Shown here: piece after piece, positions 7,787 to 60,654 of the stretch
Layout: every line of letters begins with the position of its first letter
Numbering within the stretch: the first letter of the stretch is position 1
NCBI RefSeq assembly: GCF_036971445.1
Contig: NC_091480.1
Coordinates: 95,356,001-95,420,000, forward strand
Direction: 5' to 3'
From: Narcine bancroftii
Lineage: Eukaryota
Length of the DNA stretch: 64,000 nucleotides
Notes under the pieces: model-generated
What the model was told of the DNA's origin: nothing
The model's input: the letters and a program-made list of their open reading frames with translations, nothing else
Databases searched by the model: none
Position numbers and translations under genes: made by a program

Positions 7787-8684
7787 GTAAGTGCCTCTTT
7801 CTTTATTTCTAATGTATCACCGTCATTTCAAAATGAAATGCTGTATGACAAGCACTTCGACGTCCTCTCAGAGGTGAAACAGCATGAGTTGTTACAAGTT
7901 TATTGTGTAACCTAATCTACGTATGTTTATAAGTTGACATCACTGTCTTTCTGCATATGGATCTGCAGCTCAGTGTTTAGTCAGTCAAGTTCACGAATGG
8001 TGACATACACAATGTTGAGTGTTTGGCTCAAGAGAGAATGAGAGAAGTCAGAACTAAGCATTTACCAAGCAACTTGTCTGCACAAGGCAAAGCTGTCCAG
8101 ATATAAACACAGGAAATACAGGCAGTAGACATCAGCTCAGATAGCATTTATAAAGAGGTATTTTTGGCTGCTCTAATCAATGTCTCTTGCATTCTGGCTG
8201 ATTAATAAATGCCAAACTTCAAACTTTTCCAAGTTTCCTTATTTCTGTTATTATAAATGTGCCCTGCCCCTTTTTGCTGAGGTACAACATGAGCCTTGTT
8301 TGTCCCTGGGGCAGTAAGCGATTTCCATGGCTTTCTCGATGCCCATTCATTTGTATTTCTTTGCAAGCAATTCAAAGTTCGATATGAACATTGAAGAGCA
8401 CATACGAAAATAGACAATAGAAACATTGGTGTTTATATGAGATTTTTCACATTCCTTCGGATGTTATGAAATGTTTTACGGCGAGTGAAGTACCTTCTGA
8501 ATTATGACTACCGTTTTAATGTATAAATCAAAGTCCCAATGAACACCAACTACTGTAAAAGTTCTATTGTGTGCAACAATACCTTACGCCCTGCACAATC
8601 GATGTAAAAATGGCAGCAGCTCTGCATGCATACAAATGGAGGTAAACATGAACATACACAGGTTTTGGGGTAGAATGCAGCATA

Positions 8685-8853
8685 CAAGAGTGCTGCAAAA
8701 CTCAGTAGGTCACGTAGCATCCATTGGAAGGAAAAAGCAGTCAACACTTCGGGTCTGCACATTCACAACGTCGGGCTCAGGCTGGAAACACTGACTGCCT
8801 TTTCCTTCCTATGGATGCTGTGTGCCCTGCTGAGTTTTCCAGCACCTCTGTGT
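8685..8853. mobile_element. Fold-back PLE-terminus element
   Basis: Inverted arms gtgctgcaaaactcagtagg...gcatccattggaaggaaaaagcagtca / tgactgcctttttccttcctatggatgc...cctgctgagttttccagcac. Confidence 0.65.
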
Positions 8854-9169
8854 ATTGCACTGCATGCCCCCTCTGCAATTTTCTAGAAAAAACATAAACT
8901 TAGGAATTTGTCTGGACTTGGAATGCAGGATCCAGCTTCAGCTGAAGTCACACAGCCTGTTTGCATCTGATTTGCCATCAGGAAATTCAGCAATGAATCA
9001 AGGACTCGAAAAATGTCGGAAGGTTCTAATTACTTGTATCTCACGGGTATGTTCTTCTTTCTTGAGCCCAATATGGTGATTCCTGCCTTTTTGGAGCAAT
9101 ATCCCCGTTAGTTGTCATGGAAAGGACATAACCATCTAGCACTTAAGAGCAAATCTGCTCCAAATCAAT

Positions 9170-12824: not shown

Positions 12825-13260
12825 GGCTCTCCACTCAGCTCTGGATCATCTTGAAAACAGCAATTCATACATCGACTACAGCTCAGCCTTCAATACCGTG
12901 ATGGTCAAGAAGCTACAAGCTCTAGGCCTCTGTATCCCCCCTGCAAATGGATCCTTGACTTTCTCTTTGGAAGACCACAGTCAGTACAAAATGGAAACAA
13001 CATCTCCTCCTCACTGATCATCAACACAGGCGCACCCCAAGGATACGTGCTTAGTCCACTGCTCTACTCGTTATACACCCAAAACTGTATGGCCAGGCAC
13101 AATTCCAAAGCCATCTACAAGTTTGCCAATGACATCACAGTTTCTGGCAGAATCACAAATGGCAATGAAGAAGTGTACAGGAGGGAGATCGATCAGTTCG
13201 TTGCATGGGGGAACATCCTTGTGCTCAACGTCAACAAAACCAAGGAGATGATTGTGATTT
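12825..13260 (+). mobile_element. Rex1/Babar-type LINE reverse transcriptase fragment
   Basis: [54 protein letters not shown]; frameshifted. Confidence 0.8.
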
Positions 13261-14696
13261 GCTGACGGGCTCAAGCCCGAAACGTCGGTTCTGTATCTTT
13301 GCCTTTGCTACATAAAGGAGACTGTTTGACCTGCTGAACTTCTCCATCATTTTGTGTTTTTTTTCCAAAAACTCCGAATGCATGGAAATAGACATATCAT
13401 TTTTATTTCATCAATTTATACAAATCAGAAAATGCTAGGTTCAGTTCCTGGACTGAGGTTAGTTGTCATTTAGTCATATGAATGCAATAACTTGCTTGAG
13501 CGTCATATATTGGAAAGGAGAAAAATCAGCAAGGATCTAGATCTTATTAAATGCAACAGTTACTGTGAGCAAATTGCCTAGGAACACTAAAGAAGAGGAC
13601 TGTTGTAAGTGTACTTTGCACTTAGTGTGTAGCAGACCAAACGACTTCAGTCATGAGTCACTGTTATAAATGCCAATGGTGTACGAGACCCTTGCAAAGG
13701 AACCAGGGCCCTCCAAAACCAAATCTAGATCTGCAGAGGTTATAAGGGAAGGGAGATGATTACCAATAAGGAGCCATGAGATAGAATCATCACCTGGGAG
13801 GGAATCTCCGAATTCTGACGCAAGGCATCAGAAGGTCACTGGGTTGGAGGCCACAGGAGATTGTTGACACAACACCTTGGCGCTCACAAATTTCAGGGCT
13901 CAGGGCTTTTGGGATCAGAGGGCAGTGGAAAACGAGGAGGTGGGTCAGTCAGGGAGTCAGAGATGAGGAGATATTTTTAGCTCAAAACCGTACTATGCTG
14001 TGTTGGATATAGTAAAGCCCAGACAAAATAAACATTCCTATCAGATTTTTCACAGTGATGTCTTTGTGCATGGGTTTAATGTGAAAATAGTTCTACTGGA
14101 GGCAAAGAATAGTCTAAAGGTCTGGAGACTAATTGTGCAGAAAGAACTTCACCATACATGCTGATGCTGCAGGCAAGTATGACCAGAGAGGATCAAGGTG
14201 GGACATTCTCAACTAGTAGATCTACTGCCTCACACCACCAGAGCCCTGAACCTGACCTTAGGTGCTCTCTATGTGGAGTTTGAACATTCTCCCTCTGGAT
14301 TATCTCCAGATGCTCCGTTTCCCTCCCACATCCCAAAGATTGATGGGTTAATTGGCCACTGCAAGTTACACTTCTTAGGTAAGCAAGTCATCAAACTTTG
14401 GGAGAGCTGCTAGAATGTAGGAGGAACAGGATTAGTGTAAATGGATGTTTGGCAGTTGGAATGGACAGGGCTGAAGAGCATGTTGAATCCCTCTATAACT
14501 TTGAGTAAATGCATCATCCAATTTCTAAAGTCACATGAAAAGACCTTGGATTGGTTACTGTAACATTTCTCACCACTCAAAATATATTTGCAGTGATGAA
14601 ATTGTCCAATGAAATTTAATTTATCAGATTTAATGATCTGTGCCACAATTCAGCACCACCAAATTTAGCAAGGGTCGCAGTAATTGTGCTTCTATT

Positions 14697-27734: not shown

Positions 27735-28084
27735 TTACGTGGCTAGCCTGATGAACCTATAGTCATTCTTTTTCTTGAATAGAGTACATTGTGAGCAGCG
27801 AGAATGAGCGTGTTGACATGGCCGTTGCACAAAAAAAATCTTTCTTTTGGCAGAATAGTCGAGAACAAGGGGACGTAGAATAAAAGTGATTGGCTAAGAA
27901 AATGTGGACAGGATGGGGAATTGGAACCATTTCTTTTTCTCTGCATGGAGCCAATTTTGACCAAATTCTACAATTCAAATACGTTGTGATCCAAACAATT
28001 TGTCATGTAGATTTTAGTCAAAGCCTATATGGCAAAATAGATCTTCTTGATGTTGTAAGAAATGTACAAGCAAGAAAAGATGTA

Positions 28085-28300
28085 AAATTTCAGATTTATT
28101 GTCAGGGTACATAGATGACATTACATACAACCCTGAGATTCCTTTCCAGGCATGGTAAAATTACTAATGATTGGTGATGCATAAAATAAACTGTACACAG
28201 TATAAACATGTAAACAAATAAAAGAACTATAAAGAGATAACAAATGTAAACAAACTGTGCAATGCCAAGAAAACAAACATAATTTACTGGAATAAAATGC
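28085..28300 (-). mobile_element. Rex1/Babar 3' tail
   Basis: cagatttattgtcag...tacaaccctgagattcc is the reverse complement of 37450-37505. Confidence 0.65.
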
Positions 28301-28399
28301 ATCATAAACATCAATGCCTATCTTGAAAATTCTTGTTTAATTATCTCCTTTCTGCTTCTTAGCCTGCAGTAACACCATTTTAAAAATATATTGTTCACC

Positions 28400-30365
28400 A
28401 GCAATCTCCAACCAGACCGCATCAATATTGACCTCCATTTTCTGTGAACCCCCTCCCCCAGCCTCTCATCCCTCTTTCTCCCTTCCACCAGCTCCCCATC
28501 CCCTTTTCTCCCTTCTCAGAAACTTAGCTCTTTCCTAGCCCTCTGCCCTCTCTGCTGATCAATTTTTATCTCCTTTTTCTTCCTCCTTCCCACCTGTATC
28601 CCTCTTGTCTGTTCCCTCCACCTTTTTTTAATTCTGATGTCTGCCTGATTTTTTTTGCATTCCTGAAGCAGGGCCCCAGGCCTGAAGCAGGGCCCCAGGC
28701 CTGAAGCAGGGCCCCAGGCCTGAAGCAGGGCCCCAGGCCTGAAGCAGGGCCCCAGGCCTGAAGCAGGGCCCCAGGCCTGAAGCAGGGCCCCAGGCCTGAA
28801 GCAGGGCCCCAGGCCTGAAGCAGGGCCCCAGGCCTGAAGCAGGGCCCCAGGCCTGAAGCAGGGCCCCAGGCCTGAAGCAGGGCCCCAGGCCTGAAGCAGG
28901 GCCCCAGGCCTGAAGCAGGGCCCCAGGCCTGAAGCAGGGCCCCAGGCCTGAAGCAGGGCCCCAGGCCTGAAGCAGGGCCCCAGGCCTGAAGCAGGGCCCC
29001 AGGCCTGAAGCAGGGCCCCAGGCCTGAAGCAGGGCCCCAGGCCTGAAGCAGGGCCCCAGGCCTGAAGCAGGGCCCCAGGCCTGAAGCAGGGCCCCAGGCC
29101 TGAAGCAGGGCCCCAGGCCTGAAGCAGGGCCCCAGGCCTGAAGCAGGGCCCCAGGCCTGAAGCAGGGCCCCAGGCCTGAAGCAGGGCCCCAGGCCTGAAG
29201 CAGGGCCCCAGGCCTGAAGCAGGGCCCCAGGCCTGAAGCAGGGCCCCAGGCCTGAAGCAGGGCCCCAGGCCTGAAGCAGGGCCCCAGGCCTGAAGCAGGG
29301 CCCCAGGCCTGAAGCAGGGCCCCAGGCCTGAAGCAGGGCCCCAGGCCTGAAGCAGGGCCCCAGGCCTGAAGCAGGGCCCCAGGCCTGAAGCAGGGCCCCA
29401 GGCCTGAAGCAGGGCCCCAGGCCTGAAGCAGGGCCCCAGGCCTGAAGCAGGGCCCCAGGCCTGAAGCAGGGCCCCAGGCCTGAAGCAGGGCCCCAGGCCT
29501 GAAGCAGGGCCCCAGGCCTGAAGCAGGGCCCCAGGCCTGAAGCAGGGCCCCAGGCCTGAAGCAGGGCCCCAGGCCTGAAGCAGGGCCCCAGGCCTGAAGC
29601 AGGGCCCCAGGCCTGAAGCAGGGCCCCAGGCCTGAAGCAGGGCCCCAGGCCTGAAGCAGGGCCCCAGGCCTGAAGCAGGGCCCCAGGCCTGAAGCAGGGC
29701 CCCAGGCCTGAAGCAGGGCCCCAGGCCTGAAGCAGGGCCCCAGGCCTGAAGCAGGGCCCCAGGCCTGAAGCAGGGCCCCAGGCCTGAAGCAGGGCCCCAG
29801 GCCTGAAGCAGGGCCCCAGGCCTGAAGCAGGGCCCCAGGCCTGAAGCAGGGCCCCAGGCCTGAAGCAGGGCCCCAGGCCTGAAGCAGGGCCCCAGGCCTG
29901 AAGCAGGGCCCCAGGCCTGAAGCAGGGCCCCAGGCCTGAAGCAGGGCCCCAGGCCTGAAGCAGGGCCCCAGGCCTGAAGCAGGGCCCCAGGCCTGAAGCA
30001 GGGCCCCAGGCCTGAAGCAGGGCCCCAGGCCTGAAGCAGGGCCCCAGGCCTGAAGCAGGGCCCCAGGCCTGAAGCAGGGCCCCAGGCCTGAAGCAGGGCC
30101 CCAGGCCTGAAGCAGGGCCCCAGGCCTGAAGCAGGGCCCCAGGCCTGAAGCAGGGCCCCGGCCTGAAGCAGGGCCCCGGCCTGAAGCAGGGCCCCGGCCT
30201 GAAGCAGGGCCCAGGCCTGAAGCAGGGCCCAGGCCTGAAGCAGGGCCCAGGCCTGAAATGTCAGCTGCCTTTTACTTTCCATAGATGCTGAGTGACCTGC
30301 AGAGTTTTCCCAGCACTTCTGGGCACCACACTCGACCCCATCGTCTGCAGATTGCCTTGTTTGCC
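28400..30365 (+). mobile_element. PLE 3' end hosting the 19-bp array
   Basis: ctccaaccagaccgcatcaatattgac (LQPD.INID, end of GIY-YIG domain), pyrimidine tract, array, then tail catagatgctg...cctgcagagttttcccagcac...tctgcag. Confidence 0.75.
28662..30258 (+). repeat. 19-bp minisatellite (CCTGAAGCAGGGCCCCAGG)x78 plus 6 variant 18-bp units
   Basis: Apparently perfect units 28662-30143, 3 units lacking an A (30144-30197), 3 lacking a C (30198-30251), then cctgaaa. Confidence 0.98.
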
Positions 30366-35454: not shown

Positions 35455-36765
35455 GACAGAACCATTACATCGACAACCACTTTGGTGCTGCCTCATGCAC
35501 TGTGATGAGCTCGTCGACTTCATCCACTTTGCTGCCAACTTCCACTCTGAACTAAAATTCATTTGATCCATCTGTAGCAACCTATCTTCCCTCGATCTCT
35601 CCGTCTCCATCTCGTGAGTCAAACTCTTGACAGATGTTTTCTACAAACCCACCAACTCCCACAGCTACCTTGACTGCACCTCTTCTCACCCTGTGCCCTG
35701 TAAGGATTCCATTCCATTCTCTCAATTCATCCGTGTCCGCGCATCTGCTTCCAGGTCAAGGTCTTCCAAGCCAGATCATCAGAGATGTCCTCCTTCAAAC
35801 AACATGGTTTTCCCTCTCCCACCATCAACTTGGCCCTCTCCTGCATATCCTCCATTACCCACACATCTACCCTGTCTCTGTTCACCCCGATGCACAACAA
35901 GGACAGGATTCCCTTTGTTCTCATCTATCACCCCACCAGCCTCCACGTTTAATATATTCGCCTCTGCCACTTCTGCCAATCTACTACACATTCCCACAAC
36001 TAAATACATCATCCCCTCTCTGCCTTCTGCAGGAACCACTCCCTCCATGACTCCCTTGACCACTCATCTCTCCCCACCAATTGTCCCCTTGGCACCTACC
36101 CATGATCGCAGGAGATGTTTCATTTGCACCACACCTGCTCCCTCACCAACATTTGGGACCCCAGCAGTTCTTCCAAGTGCAGCAACATTTCACTTTTGAA
36201 TCTGCAGGGGTTATCTACTGCATTTGATGCTCTTGTTGTGGTCTCCTCTACATCAGATAGATTGGGCTTGGTTGAACACCTCATCTCTGTCCATTGCAAT
36301 AGCATGAATCTCCTAGTGGCCACTCATTTCAATTCTCCATCCCATTCCTTTGCTGACATGTCTGTCCGCAAACTGGAGAAACAACACCTCATCATCTGTT
36401 TGGGCACCATCCAACCAGATGGTATTAATGTAGACTTCTCCAGTTTTTGTTAACCACTCCCCACATTCTTCTTTCCCCAGCTCTTTCTCTCTCTTCCCTC
36501 CACCCCCCTTCCTCTGTCTCCTTTCACAGAGCCAATATCAATTCTCCACATCCACCTTTTGTTGGTCTGGACTCCTCCCCCAGCCACCCTTCAGGGTTCT
36601 TTACTCTGACACCTTCCTGTTCTTTGCTTATACCTTGGTCAGGCCCGAAACACTGGTAATATATCTTTACCTCCTATGGATGCTGCAAGTCCAGCTGAGT
36701 TCCTCCAGTCCTTCTGAGTGTATTTACTAAAACCACAGCATCTGCAGACATCCAGGTTTCTCTCT
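35455..36765 (+). mobile_element. Penelope-like retroelement, 3' half
   Basis: YIDN (YIDD), FYKPTNSHSYLDCTSSHPVPCKDSIPFSQFIR, LVEHLISV..LVATHFNSPSHS..RKLEKQHLIICLGTIQPDGINVDFS; frameshifted. Confidence 0.88.
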
Positions 36766-39211: not shown

Positions 39212-39405
39212 GAAACACAAAAGTCTGCAGACGCTGCAATTATAGTTTAAAAAACTTACAGAAATGCTAGAGGAACTCAGCTGGTCTTGCAGCATCCATA
39301 GGATGCCCAAGCCCTTCTTGAAGAAGGGATTGGGCTGGAAACATCAATAATATATCTTTACCTCCCAGCCAGGAGACCAGCTCTTCCTCCAACATTTCTG
39401 TATGT
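39212..39405. mobile_element. Fold-back PLE-terminus element
   Basis: Central palindrome gcccaagcccttctt|gaagaagggattgggc; outer arms acagaaatgctagaggaa / ttcctccaacatttctgt. Confidence 0.7.
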
Positions 39406-39709
39406 TCTTATCCATCATTTTTGTCCTGGATCATTGAACCTTTTCCCCAGTTTTTTCCTCCATATTGTTGTAGTTTGGTTCAGATTCATTGAAAGGACAG
39501 TAGAAAGGTGACAGTCACGTGGGGAAGGACAGAGAATGATCAAATGTTAAGCAGGGGAAGAGGCAAGGGAAAGCACAAAGAAGGCAGGGGAAAAAGAAGC
39601 AAGTACTCTAAGCCTTTGCACATCTCAATTTCTTGATTTACTTAACACACTGCTTTAATCATTTCAACTTTCCTAAAACTCTTCACCAGAATTTTGACCC
39701 TTCATGATT

Positions 39710-49927: not shown

Positions 49928-50180
49928 AAAGGAAAAGGTAAAAAGTAAAGGTTCCATTATTGTCACATACTACAACATTTAGAATGCAACATGCACGAAA
50001 TTCTTTGGCTCTTGTCTGCCATAAGGGAGACAGAGAGTTGCCATTTCGTCCAGCACCTCTCACAGAAACCTGCACCAGGTGTTCCCAGGTGATCTTCCCT
50101 CCGGTACTGACTAGGCCTGAGCCTGCTTAGCTTCCAAGGTGAAACAATTTCATGTGTATTCAAGCTATCAGGGGCTGCTA
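49928..50180 (-). mobile_element. 5S rRNA-derived SINE (SINE3-like)
   Basis: Minus strand ggaagctaagcaggctcaggcctagtcagtaccggagggaagatcacctgggaacacctggtgc aligns with the 3' half of 5S rRNA (box A, IE, box C); followed by a LINE-like tail tgtgacaataatggaacc and (cttttac)n. Confidence 0.8.
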
Positions 50181-51204
50181 TGCAGTACGATTTCTGCTTC
50201 AAGAACAGAATTTTTTCCAGCCCTTCATCGAAGAGTGTTAAAGCTCTAAAAATACATATACTGTACCTGTAAGCATATATTTCAAACGACTGTATAAAAG
50301 AGTTATATTCAAATGCACTAATTTTTGCCTTACTTGATAAAGATCCTGAAGGGCAGCAGTCCGACAGAACTAGAATATGTTCTTCAGTAGTGGAATGACA
50401 AAACATTTGAATCCCTTGTCCAAAATCCTCTTTTTGTTCACGCTACTTTTCCTGCTTCCTCGTGGTATCGTTCAACATGGAGCATTCAACAAGTGAGAGA
50501 GGACAGTAGGTGGTAATCAACTACCTCCTGCCATATGTCCACTCCCTCATACTTCTTCATTTCAGGTGGGTCTGTCTGATTGGTGGTGAGAGGACATTGG
50601 CAAGAAATGTGATGCAGAGAAGGCTGAAGATGTCTTGTCTGTAACATGATTCGGGGTGTAGAAATATTTAAAGTTGTTGCTTTCAGTTGTGTATTGAAAA
50701 GCTGTCCCAAATTAAACACCAGCCAGAGATGTCTGTAAAAAGTAAAAAGATTTGCGCTGTCAATATTGTGTCACCAGGTCAATGCAAGCTAATATGATCC
50801 ATTTTAAAATAATGGCAATTATACAATTCAGTGGCTTGTTAGGGCCATTTTATGAGGCTAAAGTCAGATCAGACTAAACAAGGTGACAGATCTCCTTCCC
50901 TGAAATAAAAGATAGTAAACTACTTTTTTTTTCCATATGAAGATAACACATTTAGACATTTTTAATTTTGTGATTGGACTTAACTTGGTTAAGTTAATAT
51001 CCACATTAACACAAGGAACTTTTGTATAGGACAGTAAAGCCTAATCATCACTCATCCCATTACACATCAGTGTCTGAAGTCCATGGAGCAGCATGGAAAA
51101 GCTTGATCAGATGAATTGTCGATTTTCTTTTGAGAATTGTGCTATGGATGAGACTAGTTACATTGAAGGATGGGCACAGAGAAAGTGAGATGAACAAAAC
51201 TCTA

Positions 51205-53896: not shown

Positions 53897-54590
53897 GAGA
53901 GGGGAAAAGGGAGGGGGAGAGGGGAAGAGGGGGAGAGGGGAAGAGGGGGAGAGGGGAAGAGGGGGAGAGGGGAAGAGGGGGAGAGGGGAAGAGGGGGAGG
54001 GGGGGAAGAGGAGGGGGGGGGGAAGAGGAGGGGGGGGGAAGAGGAGGGGGGGGGAAGAGGAGGGGGGGGGGAAGAGGAGGGGGGGGAAGAGGAGGGGGGG
54101 GAAGAGGAGGGGGGGGGGAAGAGGNNNNNNNNNNNNNNNNNNNNNNNNNNNNNNNNNNNNNNNNNNNNNNNNNNNNNNNNNNNNNNNNNNNNNNNNNNNN
54201 NNNNNNNNNNNNNNNNNNNNNNNNNNNNNNNNNNNNNNNNNNNNNNNNNNNNNNNNNGGGGGGGGGGAAGAGGAGGGGGGGGGAAGAGGAGGGGGGGGGG
54301 AAGAGGAGGGGGGGGGGAAGAGGAGGGGGGGGGGAAGAGGAGGGGGGGGGGAAGAGGAGGGGGGGGGGAAGAGGAGGGGGGGGAAGAGGAGGGGGGGGGG
54401 AAGAGGAGGGGGGGGGGAAGAGGAGGGGGGGGGAAGAGGAGGGGGGGGGGGAAGAGGAGGGGGGGGGGAAGAGGAGGGGGGGGGGGAAGAGGAGGGGGGG
54501 GGGAAGAGGAGGGGGGGGGGAAGAGGAGGGGGGGGGGGAAGAGGAGGGGGGGGGGGAAGAGGGGGGGGGGGGAAGAGGGGGGGGGGGAAG
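53897..54590 (+). repeat. Pure-purine G-rich repeat (AAGAGGA-Gn) filling RDM1 intron 1, containing an N gap at 54125-54257
   Basis: Only G and A outside the gap; G runs of about 4-12. Confidence 0.95.
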
Positions 54591-54627
54591 AGCAGAATTG
54601 TTACAACGGATGTTTCCTTGTTTGTAG

Positions 54628-60004: not shown

Positions 60005-60235
60005 AGTAAAACGCAACATTCTGTGGACACCGTAGTTGAAGTAAAAACACACCATGCTGGAGAAACTTGGCAGGTCAAACAGTGTCCTTTACGTAGCTTA
60101 ACTGGCATTGCGGGCTTGAGCCCTTCAAAGTATGGGTCTTTGATGAAGGGCTCAAGCCCTCAATGTCAGTTACGTATCTCTGCTTTTACTACATAAAGGA
60201 CGCTGTTTGACCAGCTGAGTTTCTCCAGCATTTTG
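60005..60235. mobile_element. Fold-back PLE-terminus element
   Basis: gggcttgagcccttca / tgaagggctcaagccc core; arms atgctggagaaact...ggtcaaacagtgtccttt / aaaggacgctgtttgacc...agtttctccagcat. Confidence 0.75.
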
Positions 60236-60654
60236 GTTGGGTTTTTTTAATTAACTTTGTTACCCTCAAAAATAAATTGGAAATTGTGAGGTTTTGATCA
60301 GATCGATGGGGAGAGTCTATTTTAAGTCTGCTCTGAGGTAGATTAATTTAAATTGGATTGCCTCAGTTGCAATATGAAGTTGGTCTGTCAGTCTTTACTG
60401 GACAAGCCTGGTCCTTGGTTCTTCCAAAGTTAAGGTGCAACTGCCAAGACTTCAATTCAATACCAAATGAATAGAATCCTTTTTGTTCACCGCGACTAGT
60501 TTCTCATACCGACTCAACTACAGTAATGTTCTTCACTCCCATGTGTTGGAGGTACAGTGTTGTAAGCCTTTTAGATGAGACCTTCACTAGAAGGGCCCTA
60601 ATTAAATGGTCACCGTGAATTTAAGGAATAAGCTTCGGGTTCCATTTGAATCAG

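Follow-up and report, generated by a model that had tools for sequence, protein, structure and literature searches.

A Tandem Array Within a Penelope-Like Element Terminus

The locus lies in a 64,000-nucleotide stretch of the Narcine bancroftii genome (NC_091480.1, positions 95,356,001 to 95,420,000), which we analysed at its full length and call the window; all positions refer to it unless another contig is named. On the forward strand, an exact parse resolves positions 28662–30257 into 78 identical 19-mers, two blocks of three 18-mers each, and a final CCTGAA, in agreement with the original prediction of a polar array with two three-unit variant blocks at its 3′ end. TRF describes the same array as 84.3 copies of period 19 at 99% identity. 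The 19-mer CCTGAAGCAGGGCCCCAGG (28662–30143) contains the CUGA box of a hammerhead ribozyme with A9 changed to C, the 5′ arm and loop of stem II, part of the 3′ arm, and an extra C (hammerhead positions are numbered as in PMC4209133). It is followed by the 18-mer variant CCTGAAGCAGGGCCCCGG (30144–30197, forward strand), which lacks the StuI site, and by the 18-mer CCTGAAGCAGGGCCCAGG (30198–30251, forward strand), directly 3′ of which the sequence reads CCTGAAATGTCAG. The terminal CCTGAA and the sole GAAA-N-GUC ribozyme half, CpG-decayed relative to the family alignment, occupy 30252–30262 on the same strand, and in an intact motif cleavage would be predicted directly after 30262. CCTGAA thereby bounds the array on either side as a 6-bp direct repeat (28662 and 30252), as expected from the microhomology proposed at the unit boundaries, and the two enzymes suggested for typing do cut the units (81 StuI and 84 ApaI sites).

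Each unit spans the CUGA box through stem II up to the CCTGAA that precedes GAAA, a stretch that is 18 nt long in the family alignment. The middle 18-mer differs from the 3′-most 18-mer by one A-to-C change and the 19-mer by insertion of one C. Since its length equals that of the family, the 3′-most 18-mer represents the ancestral unit, from which the majority 19-mer is derived. The short units had been called single-base-deletion variants, which holds relative to the majority unit but not historically. With the oldest units at the 3′ end and derived 19-mers before them, the array grew in a polar manner, away from the 3′ end. The unit is also hairpin-prone, as had been noted, but unremarkably so: with DNA parameters, the fold of six units reaches −36.7 kcal/mol, compared with −29.7 ± 9.4 over 500 permutations of the unit, of which 21% are at least as stable, and we rejected a special hairpin stability on this basis.

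The Host Copy and Its Family

The host is a 5′-truncated copy of a Penelope-like element (PLE), all parts of which lie on the forward strand. Its approximate 5′ end is marked by a remnant of the ORF C-terminus (28388–28447, ending in LQPDRINIDLHFL*), identified by translation, tblastx, and blastn, which retains only the last 20 codons. In tblastx this remnant matches the end of a longer element at 35.5–36.8 kb (LGTIQPDGINVDFSSF), and from 28398 onward blastn aligns the copy with three paralogues (L004, L009, and L013) at 67–69% identity. A pyrimidine-rich 3′ UTR or pseudo-LTR (28448–28661) keeps its alignment to the family until the first unit begins, and the 3′ end of the terminus (30263–30362), supported by paralogue alignments, continues for about 110 nt after the core. 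The family profile, constructed from 49 termini, matches 28639–28686 (model positions 3–49) and 30234–30362 (model positions 26–154, E 2e-33). Because these matches flank the array at those model positions, the array occupies the position of the core, replacing that half of a minimal-hammerhead-type motif which comprises the CUGA box and stem II. With the array removed, the flanks match a large family of dispersed copies in register (76–87% identity in the best 40 of 1,340 candidates). Both the placement of the array at the hammerhead motif and the derivation of its unit from the core are thus upheld, the first by profile matches on both sides and the second by the in-register family alignment.

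The assignment of this terminus to PLEs draws on protein-level evidence. Of 15 loci selected by an RT-thumb peptide of the longer element, eight, among them the window's own element at 36 kb and one weak match, have the terminus on the same strand at a distance of about 1 kb downstream. The proteins of longer elements contain YIDD and FTCES.GVIYCI.CSC motifs, which we take to be those of a PLE reverse transcriptase (RT) and a GIY-YIG endonuclease; Pfam scans and a PDB search with PLE fragments named neither domain, and the Atlas lead and the one homologue carry PF26215 (HTH_animal). No long PLE frame occurs in the best 150 of 13,854 candidates, in which the longest frame has 401 amino acids, a weak sign that no active PLE element remains.

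The window as a whole contains 22 profile matches, mostly 5′-truncated copies and often in inverted pairs. Such pairs lie at 802–1089, where the opposite-strand profile matches span 802–1010, and at 8647–8878, 39214–39406, and 60015–60237; three of them yield miRNA-like matches in Rfam, and we discarded the Rfam miRNA matches in the window as inverted PLE termini. The longer, broken PLE-like copy at 35501–36758 (forward strand) has an RT end, a Cys-rich endonuclease-like motif, and the same terminus, and an RT fragment at 12855–13265 (forward strand; PF00078, E 1e-8) is directly followed by a PLE terminus at 13263–13372. No host gene was found; Pfam scans of 30 of the 42 long frames in the window, arrays and N runs excluded, gave one RT match only. 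Two further features were observed: a 5S rRNA-like segment at 50061–50181 (reverse strand), which scores 35.4 bits against an Rfam cut-off of 38 and is probably a 5S-derived SINE head or a pseudogene, and G-rich 16/17-mer arrays that flank an N run at 53911–54592.

Read Support and Copy Number

Perfectly identical units, with variants that differ by single bases within a C run, might raise the suspicion of an array inflated or homogenised by errors in polishing or in the long reads. Such an artefact is very improbable given the contigs of public short-read runs, one of which (X3) may come from the assembled individual itself. In X3, a 49-base cyclic contig of the 19-mer has a depth of 700, compared with 8.53 for the unique flank, and the resulting ratio of 82 is close to the 77.3 predicted from the assembly. 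Both 18-mer variants are present in X3 as separate contigs, with ratios of 1.7 and 3.4 where 2.3 and 1.8 are expected; the contig of the middle variant has a depth of 14.2 in X2 and X3, and the 3′-most 18-mer has its own contig in X2, X3, and X5. Furthermore, the 19-mer cycle recurs in runs from three studies (X3, X4, and X5). The array is confirmed as real.

The ratio of unit to flank depth falls from 82 in X3 to 19 in X5 and about 4–6 in X4 (flank depth 2.4–3.6). This weak depth evidence suggests that array length likely still varies between individuals, although low depth, library type, or GC bias could mimic such differences. No single-unit orthologue or allele was seen in the contigs of public sequencing runs, where matches are dominated by paralogues. 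In a separate part of the window, at 28000–28263, exact-match contigs reach depths of 67–90 in X5, a run that we guess to be RNA although none of the listed runs is recorded as such, compared with 4.3 at the right flank of the array.

The Family Hammerhead and the Status of the Array Units

In an alignment of 48 family rows, stem II is paired in 94% of cases and A15.1-U16.1 is kept in 42 of 48 rows, while a stem I pair alternates between C-G and U-A, with both sides changing between subfamilies (11 rows). Overall, the hammerhead pairing is formed at 77%, compared with 17–45% in slid controls. The covariation score did not exceed that of shuffles, and a pattern that includes stem II had been used to choose 30 of the 48 rows; the support for the hammerhead therefore comes from consensus rather than covariation. 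Judged by that consensus, the family terminus fits the minimal type I hammerhead of PLEs, whereas an Rfam scan of the window, read to E 1, gave no match to a hammerhead family.

With strict patterns, 10,239 and 19,820 cores are counted genome-wide, and the profile detects 51 copies that span the core in 0.98 Mb, which corresponds to about 170,000 in the 3.3-Gb genome. Letter frequencies at individual positions were taken from the 33 of these 51 random copies that could be parsed (18 could not). Position 11.1 is T in 18 of them and C in 10, and G10.1-C11.1 is described as a conserved pair in minimal PLE hammerheads (PMC4209133). In the majority of core copies, position 3 is U instead of C and G8 is kept (CT|TGA in 15 and CC|TGA in 3, the commonest classes of the 33; also in L067-L096); the available text of PMC4209133 names only C3-G8 and U3-A8 for the 3/8 pair of minimal hammerheads.

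GAAA, stem III, and the cut site are all missing from the array units themselves. The sole ribozyme half left over carries A9C, has G-U in place of G10.1-C11.1, has lost its ACGU palindrome, and is mismatched at the first stem I pair, and a folded single-copy reconstruction does not adopt a hammerhead shape. As the original prediction had it, the units have no intact core and are probably inactive, and from these letters the remaining half would not be expected to cleave. These losses weigh heavily against a functional micro-retrozyme or regulatory RNA, that is, an array that is transcribed and cleaves itself as dimers. Although tandem hammerheads define non-LTR retrozymes in the accessible part of a recent preprint (bioRxiv 10.64898/2026.07.22.740005) and the unit occurs in contigs of X5, the putative RNA run, we regard such a function as barely credible.

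Timing and Mode of Expansion

Compared with the majority sequence of the 19 closest fetched paralogues, the 3′ flank of the array differs at 17 of 111 positions, a divergence of 15%. At this divergence about 227 substitutions would be expected in the 1,482 bp of 19-mers, whereas there are none (upper bound 0.2%), so that the units would be at least 70-fold younger than their host (<0.2% vs. 15%) unless they have been homogenised since. Moreover, position 9 is C in all 84 units but in only one of the 33 parsed random copies, and perfect 6-bp CCTGAA microhomology is likewise found in one of 33; the amplified unit had therefore already decayed. The absence of substitutions in a 15% diverged host, together with the rare A9C in every unit, implies a recent, post-insertion expansion, as had been proposed from the identical units. 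More exactly, what appears recent is the expansion or its last homogenisation: since homogenisation could erase an older two-unit seed, the age argument dates the expansion and not the first duplication.

We consider the array to be a single-locus minisatellite, likely produced by recent, ordinary DNA-level duplication in an old, decayed PLE terminus and predicted to have no ribozyme activity, with a probability of roughly 0.8. The exact 19-mer is unique to the locus, with all 78 of its genome matches lying in the array. The proposed course begins with the insertion, long ago to judge from the divergence, of a 5′-truncated PLE copy whose remnant is still present. Decay would then have turned CCCGAA into CCTGAA by CpG loss and A9 into C; both letters are in the sequence, and their order is our reconstruction. 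The two CCTGAA words, now 18 bp apart, may have allowed slippage or unequal exchange to duplicate the intervening stretch, following the model of flanking 5–10 bp direct repeats. Polar growth, through a mechanism that we can only suppose, would have kept the old units at the 3′ end while the one-C-longer unit swept to 78 copies, an order that the array preserves. Finally, its length would likely still vary between individuals, as the depth ratios hint.

An RT-based origin was the other possibility raised initially, in which the PLE RT wrote the whole array at insertion by repeated realignment on its template, in the manner of telomerase. PLE RTs are indeed telomerase-like (PMC4209133; PMC11167929) and the array is polar, but minisatellites are as a rule polar (PMC3389668), and the portion of PMC11167929 available to us describes no reiterated products. 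Reiterative synthesis also sits poorly with identical units in a 15% diverged host, with decayed letters common to all units, with a unit found at one locus only, and with the lack of a long PLE frame among the best 150 candidates noted above. In addition, PLE sequence is unbroken 5′ of the array, and there is therefore no junction at the array. Together these observations make reiterative synthesis extremely unlikely.

Core Duplications Elsewhere in the Genome

A genome scan for arrays at the same position of other PLE termini gave a divided result. No other same-register array of the 18-bp unit was found: the pattern for such a duplication matched four other loci, two of them inverted junctions and two single copies, and none an array. 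By contrast, a pattern for core duplications with periods of 25–60 gave 70 matches at 33 other loci, all of which were inspected. Fourteen of the 33 have approximately three or more units, and 10 have 8–35 whole-core units of 34–49 bp at 75–95% identity. These whole-core arrays are located at G000:C213:75177-76159 (L113), C5:370.9 Mb (L261), C29:5.08 Mb (L290), C27:71.7 Mb (L288), C5:166.9 Mb (L253), C11:39.3 Mb (L274), C9:175.0 Mb (L268), C9:311.3 Mb (L273), C11:252.0 Mb (L278), and C23:67.2 Mb (L285). In four of them (L278, L268, L288, and L113), two to four units each have an intact GAAACGU. A looser two-box pattern, with 1,030 matches, was set aside, as the 12 loci inspected among 100 listed were mostly unrelated satellites.

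A 15-mer from outside the ribozyme but within the same terminus, present in 44,415 copies, served as the control. At periods up to 35, to which the 19-bp unit belongs, duplications are similarly frequent on the core (5 per 19,820) and on the control (10 per 44,415; ratio 1.1, p 0.79). At periods of 25–60, on six contigs, there are 20 core and 17 control loci (ratio 2.6, CI 1.3–5.4, p 0.004), with the loci counted by eye, the contigs being those covered by the first 100 of 1,013 control matches, and with a true ratio slightly below 2.6, because the denominator pattern is stricter and its count slightly too small. For loci with at least three units the numbers are 10 and 8 (ratio 2.8, p 0.04). 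The largest arrays come from the control segment and not from the core: a 21-mer × 380 (L135, 539–8535; G000:C8:238.2 Mb) and a 41-mer of more than 11 kb (G000:C15:243.94 Mb), in addition to a 37-mer × 11 (L128).

Minisatellites are also common in the genomic background. Among 98 evenly spaced 10-kb stretches we found eight arrays (period 10–60, at least 8 copies, at least 90% identity), one of which is a 20-mer × 70 at 96%; three of the 98 stretches (L156, L157, and L195) are filled end to end by minisatellites with periods of 32–49. A rough estimate for the approximately 170,000 core-bearing termini is that 7–51 arrays would fall on cores by chance, and eleven were found, although the strict patterns detect only about one core in eight and true array numbers could exceed the chance range. 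It had been argued that a one-off locus would refute the RT-driven model. This does not decide the matter: the class of event recurs at 33 other loci, and the test is indecisive in any case because a non-ribozyme segment also forms arrays and long, near-perfect minisatellites are common.

The positions at which the core duplications begin bear on a milder role for the RT, in which it pauses or runs off at the 5′ edge of the hammerhead, re-primes 18 nt downstream, and leaves a seed that minisatellite turnover later amplifies. In 26 core duplications out of 33, where 11.5 would be expected, the start of the unit lies no more than 10 nt 5′ of the UGA box; the alignment method inflates this difference. 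The array studied here starts there too (−2). Many of the 33 sit at 5′ or inverted junctions, and several two-unit cases are old (77–89% identity). Eight further loci (L097-L103 and L105) have an extra piece of the first 10–14 bases of the core just 5′ of a full core, mostly at apparent 5′ or inverted junctions; these pieces may record RT re-priming or templated end-joining. The clustered starts suggest a process that is not wholly position-blind, of which fixed microhomology could explain a part, since the fixed TACCTT word 5′ of the core could account equally well for clustering of 42–50 bp units. Together with the roughly 2.6-fold excess at long periods, the starts just 5′ of the CUGA box keep RT seeding alive for some core duplications. 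For the array at 28662–30257 it is improbable, as the element continues 5′ into the UTR and ORF end without a junction, the perfect microhomology requires a CpG-decayed letter that would be unexpected in an active template, and no excess is seen in the period class of its unit.

A broader and still unlikely proposal, drawn from the graded series of half-core to whole-core duplications, is that the telomerase-like RT preferentially re-primes at the hammerhead's 5′ edge and so seeds duplications at insertion, to be amplified later in an expansion-prone genome. If this were true, some of the 34–49 bp whole-core units might cleave as dimers, which would amount to retrozyme birth within one genome. 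Such an RT-seeded route to very small retrozymes rests more on the other 33 loci than on the array studied here.

Comparison with Known Systems

Ordinary duplication in a decayed terminus would place the array among transposon-derived minisatellites: it consists of head-to-tail units in the 10–60 bp range at high identity, and its unit is homologous to part of a dispersed element, whose register it keeps. To judge from these features, the array is a TE-derived minisatellite and a likely VNTR; it is probably inert. Minisatellites derived from human Alu, L1, and ERV elements are bounded by direct repeats of 5–10 bp (PMC3389668; PMC9659126), for which PMC3389668 cites the flanking direct-repeat model of Haber and Louis and Jurka and Gentles (2006), and polar growth is usual for minisatellites (PMC3389668). 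The array resembles the TE-derived repeats of PMC3389668 in being a single-locus array from an internal piece of a retroelement, with 6-bp end repeats and polar local growth. It differs from them in its source, a PLE hammerhead core, and in its 84 copies, 78 of which are identical, where the repeats in the accessible part of that study mostly have two units. A literature search for sub-core hammerhead minisatellites or for this genome returned none, with incomplete coverage of subscription sources.

The family terminus agrees with the minimal type I hammerheads of PLEs (PMC4209133) in its CUGANGA box, the extra base between positions 9 and 10.1, the G10.1-C11.1 pair of stem II, GAAA, and the palindromic 15.2–16.2. 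The host copy departs from them by mutation at A9, C11.1, 15.2, and stem I, and many family copies do so by U at position 3. After the core, the family element has about 110 nt left before its end. This is near the distance in Anolis Poseidon, where the internal RT start is located 111–118 nt inside an ORF that opens at stem II (PMC11167929).

In non-LTR retrozymes the units measure 51–972 bp, and two or more in a row each contain a complete hammerhead (bioRxiv 10.64898/2026.07.22.740005; PMC7229834); their origin by local amplification of PLE termini has already been proposed (bioRxiv 10.64898/2026.07.22.740005). Such families are further characterised by dispersal over several loci and by transcription into self-cleaving, circular RNA. 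Like them, the array is a tandem repeat born from a PLE terminus by local amplification. However, its unit is 19 bp, holds half a core, occurs at one locus, and offers no complete hammerhead in consecutive units; because retrozymes require whole hammerheads in consecutive units of 51–972 bp, the array is not a retrozyme. The whole-core units of 34–49 bp also fall below the 51-bp minimum of the vertebrate retrozyme survey in the same preprint, whose supplement may already include these arrays in its family lists. Taken alone, the array is an ordinary transposon-born minisatellite, at most a hypervariable marker and a dated record of polar growth. The 33 core duplications matter more: counted against matched controls, they can test whether retrozymes are born from locally amplified PLE termini and whether the initial duplication is the work of the RT or of DNA repair in the host.
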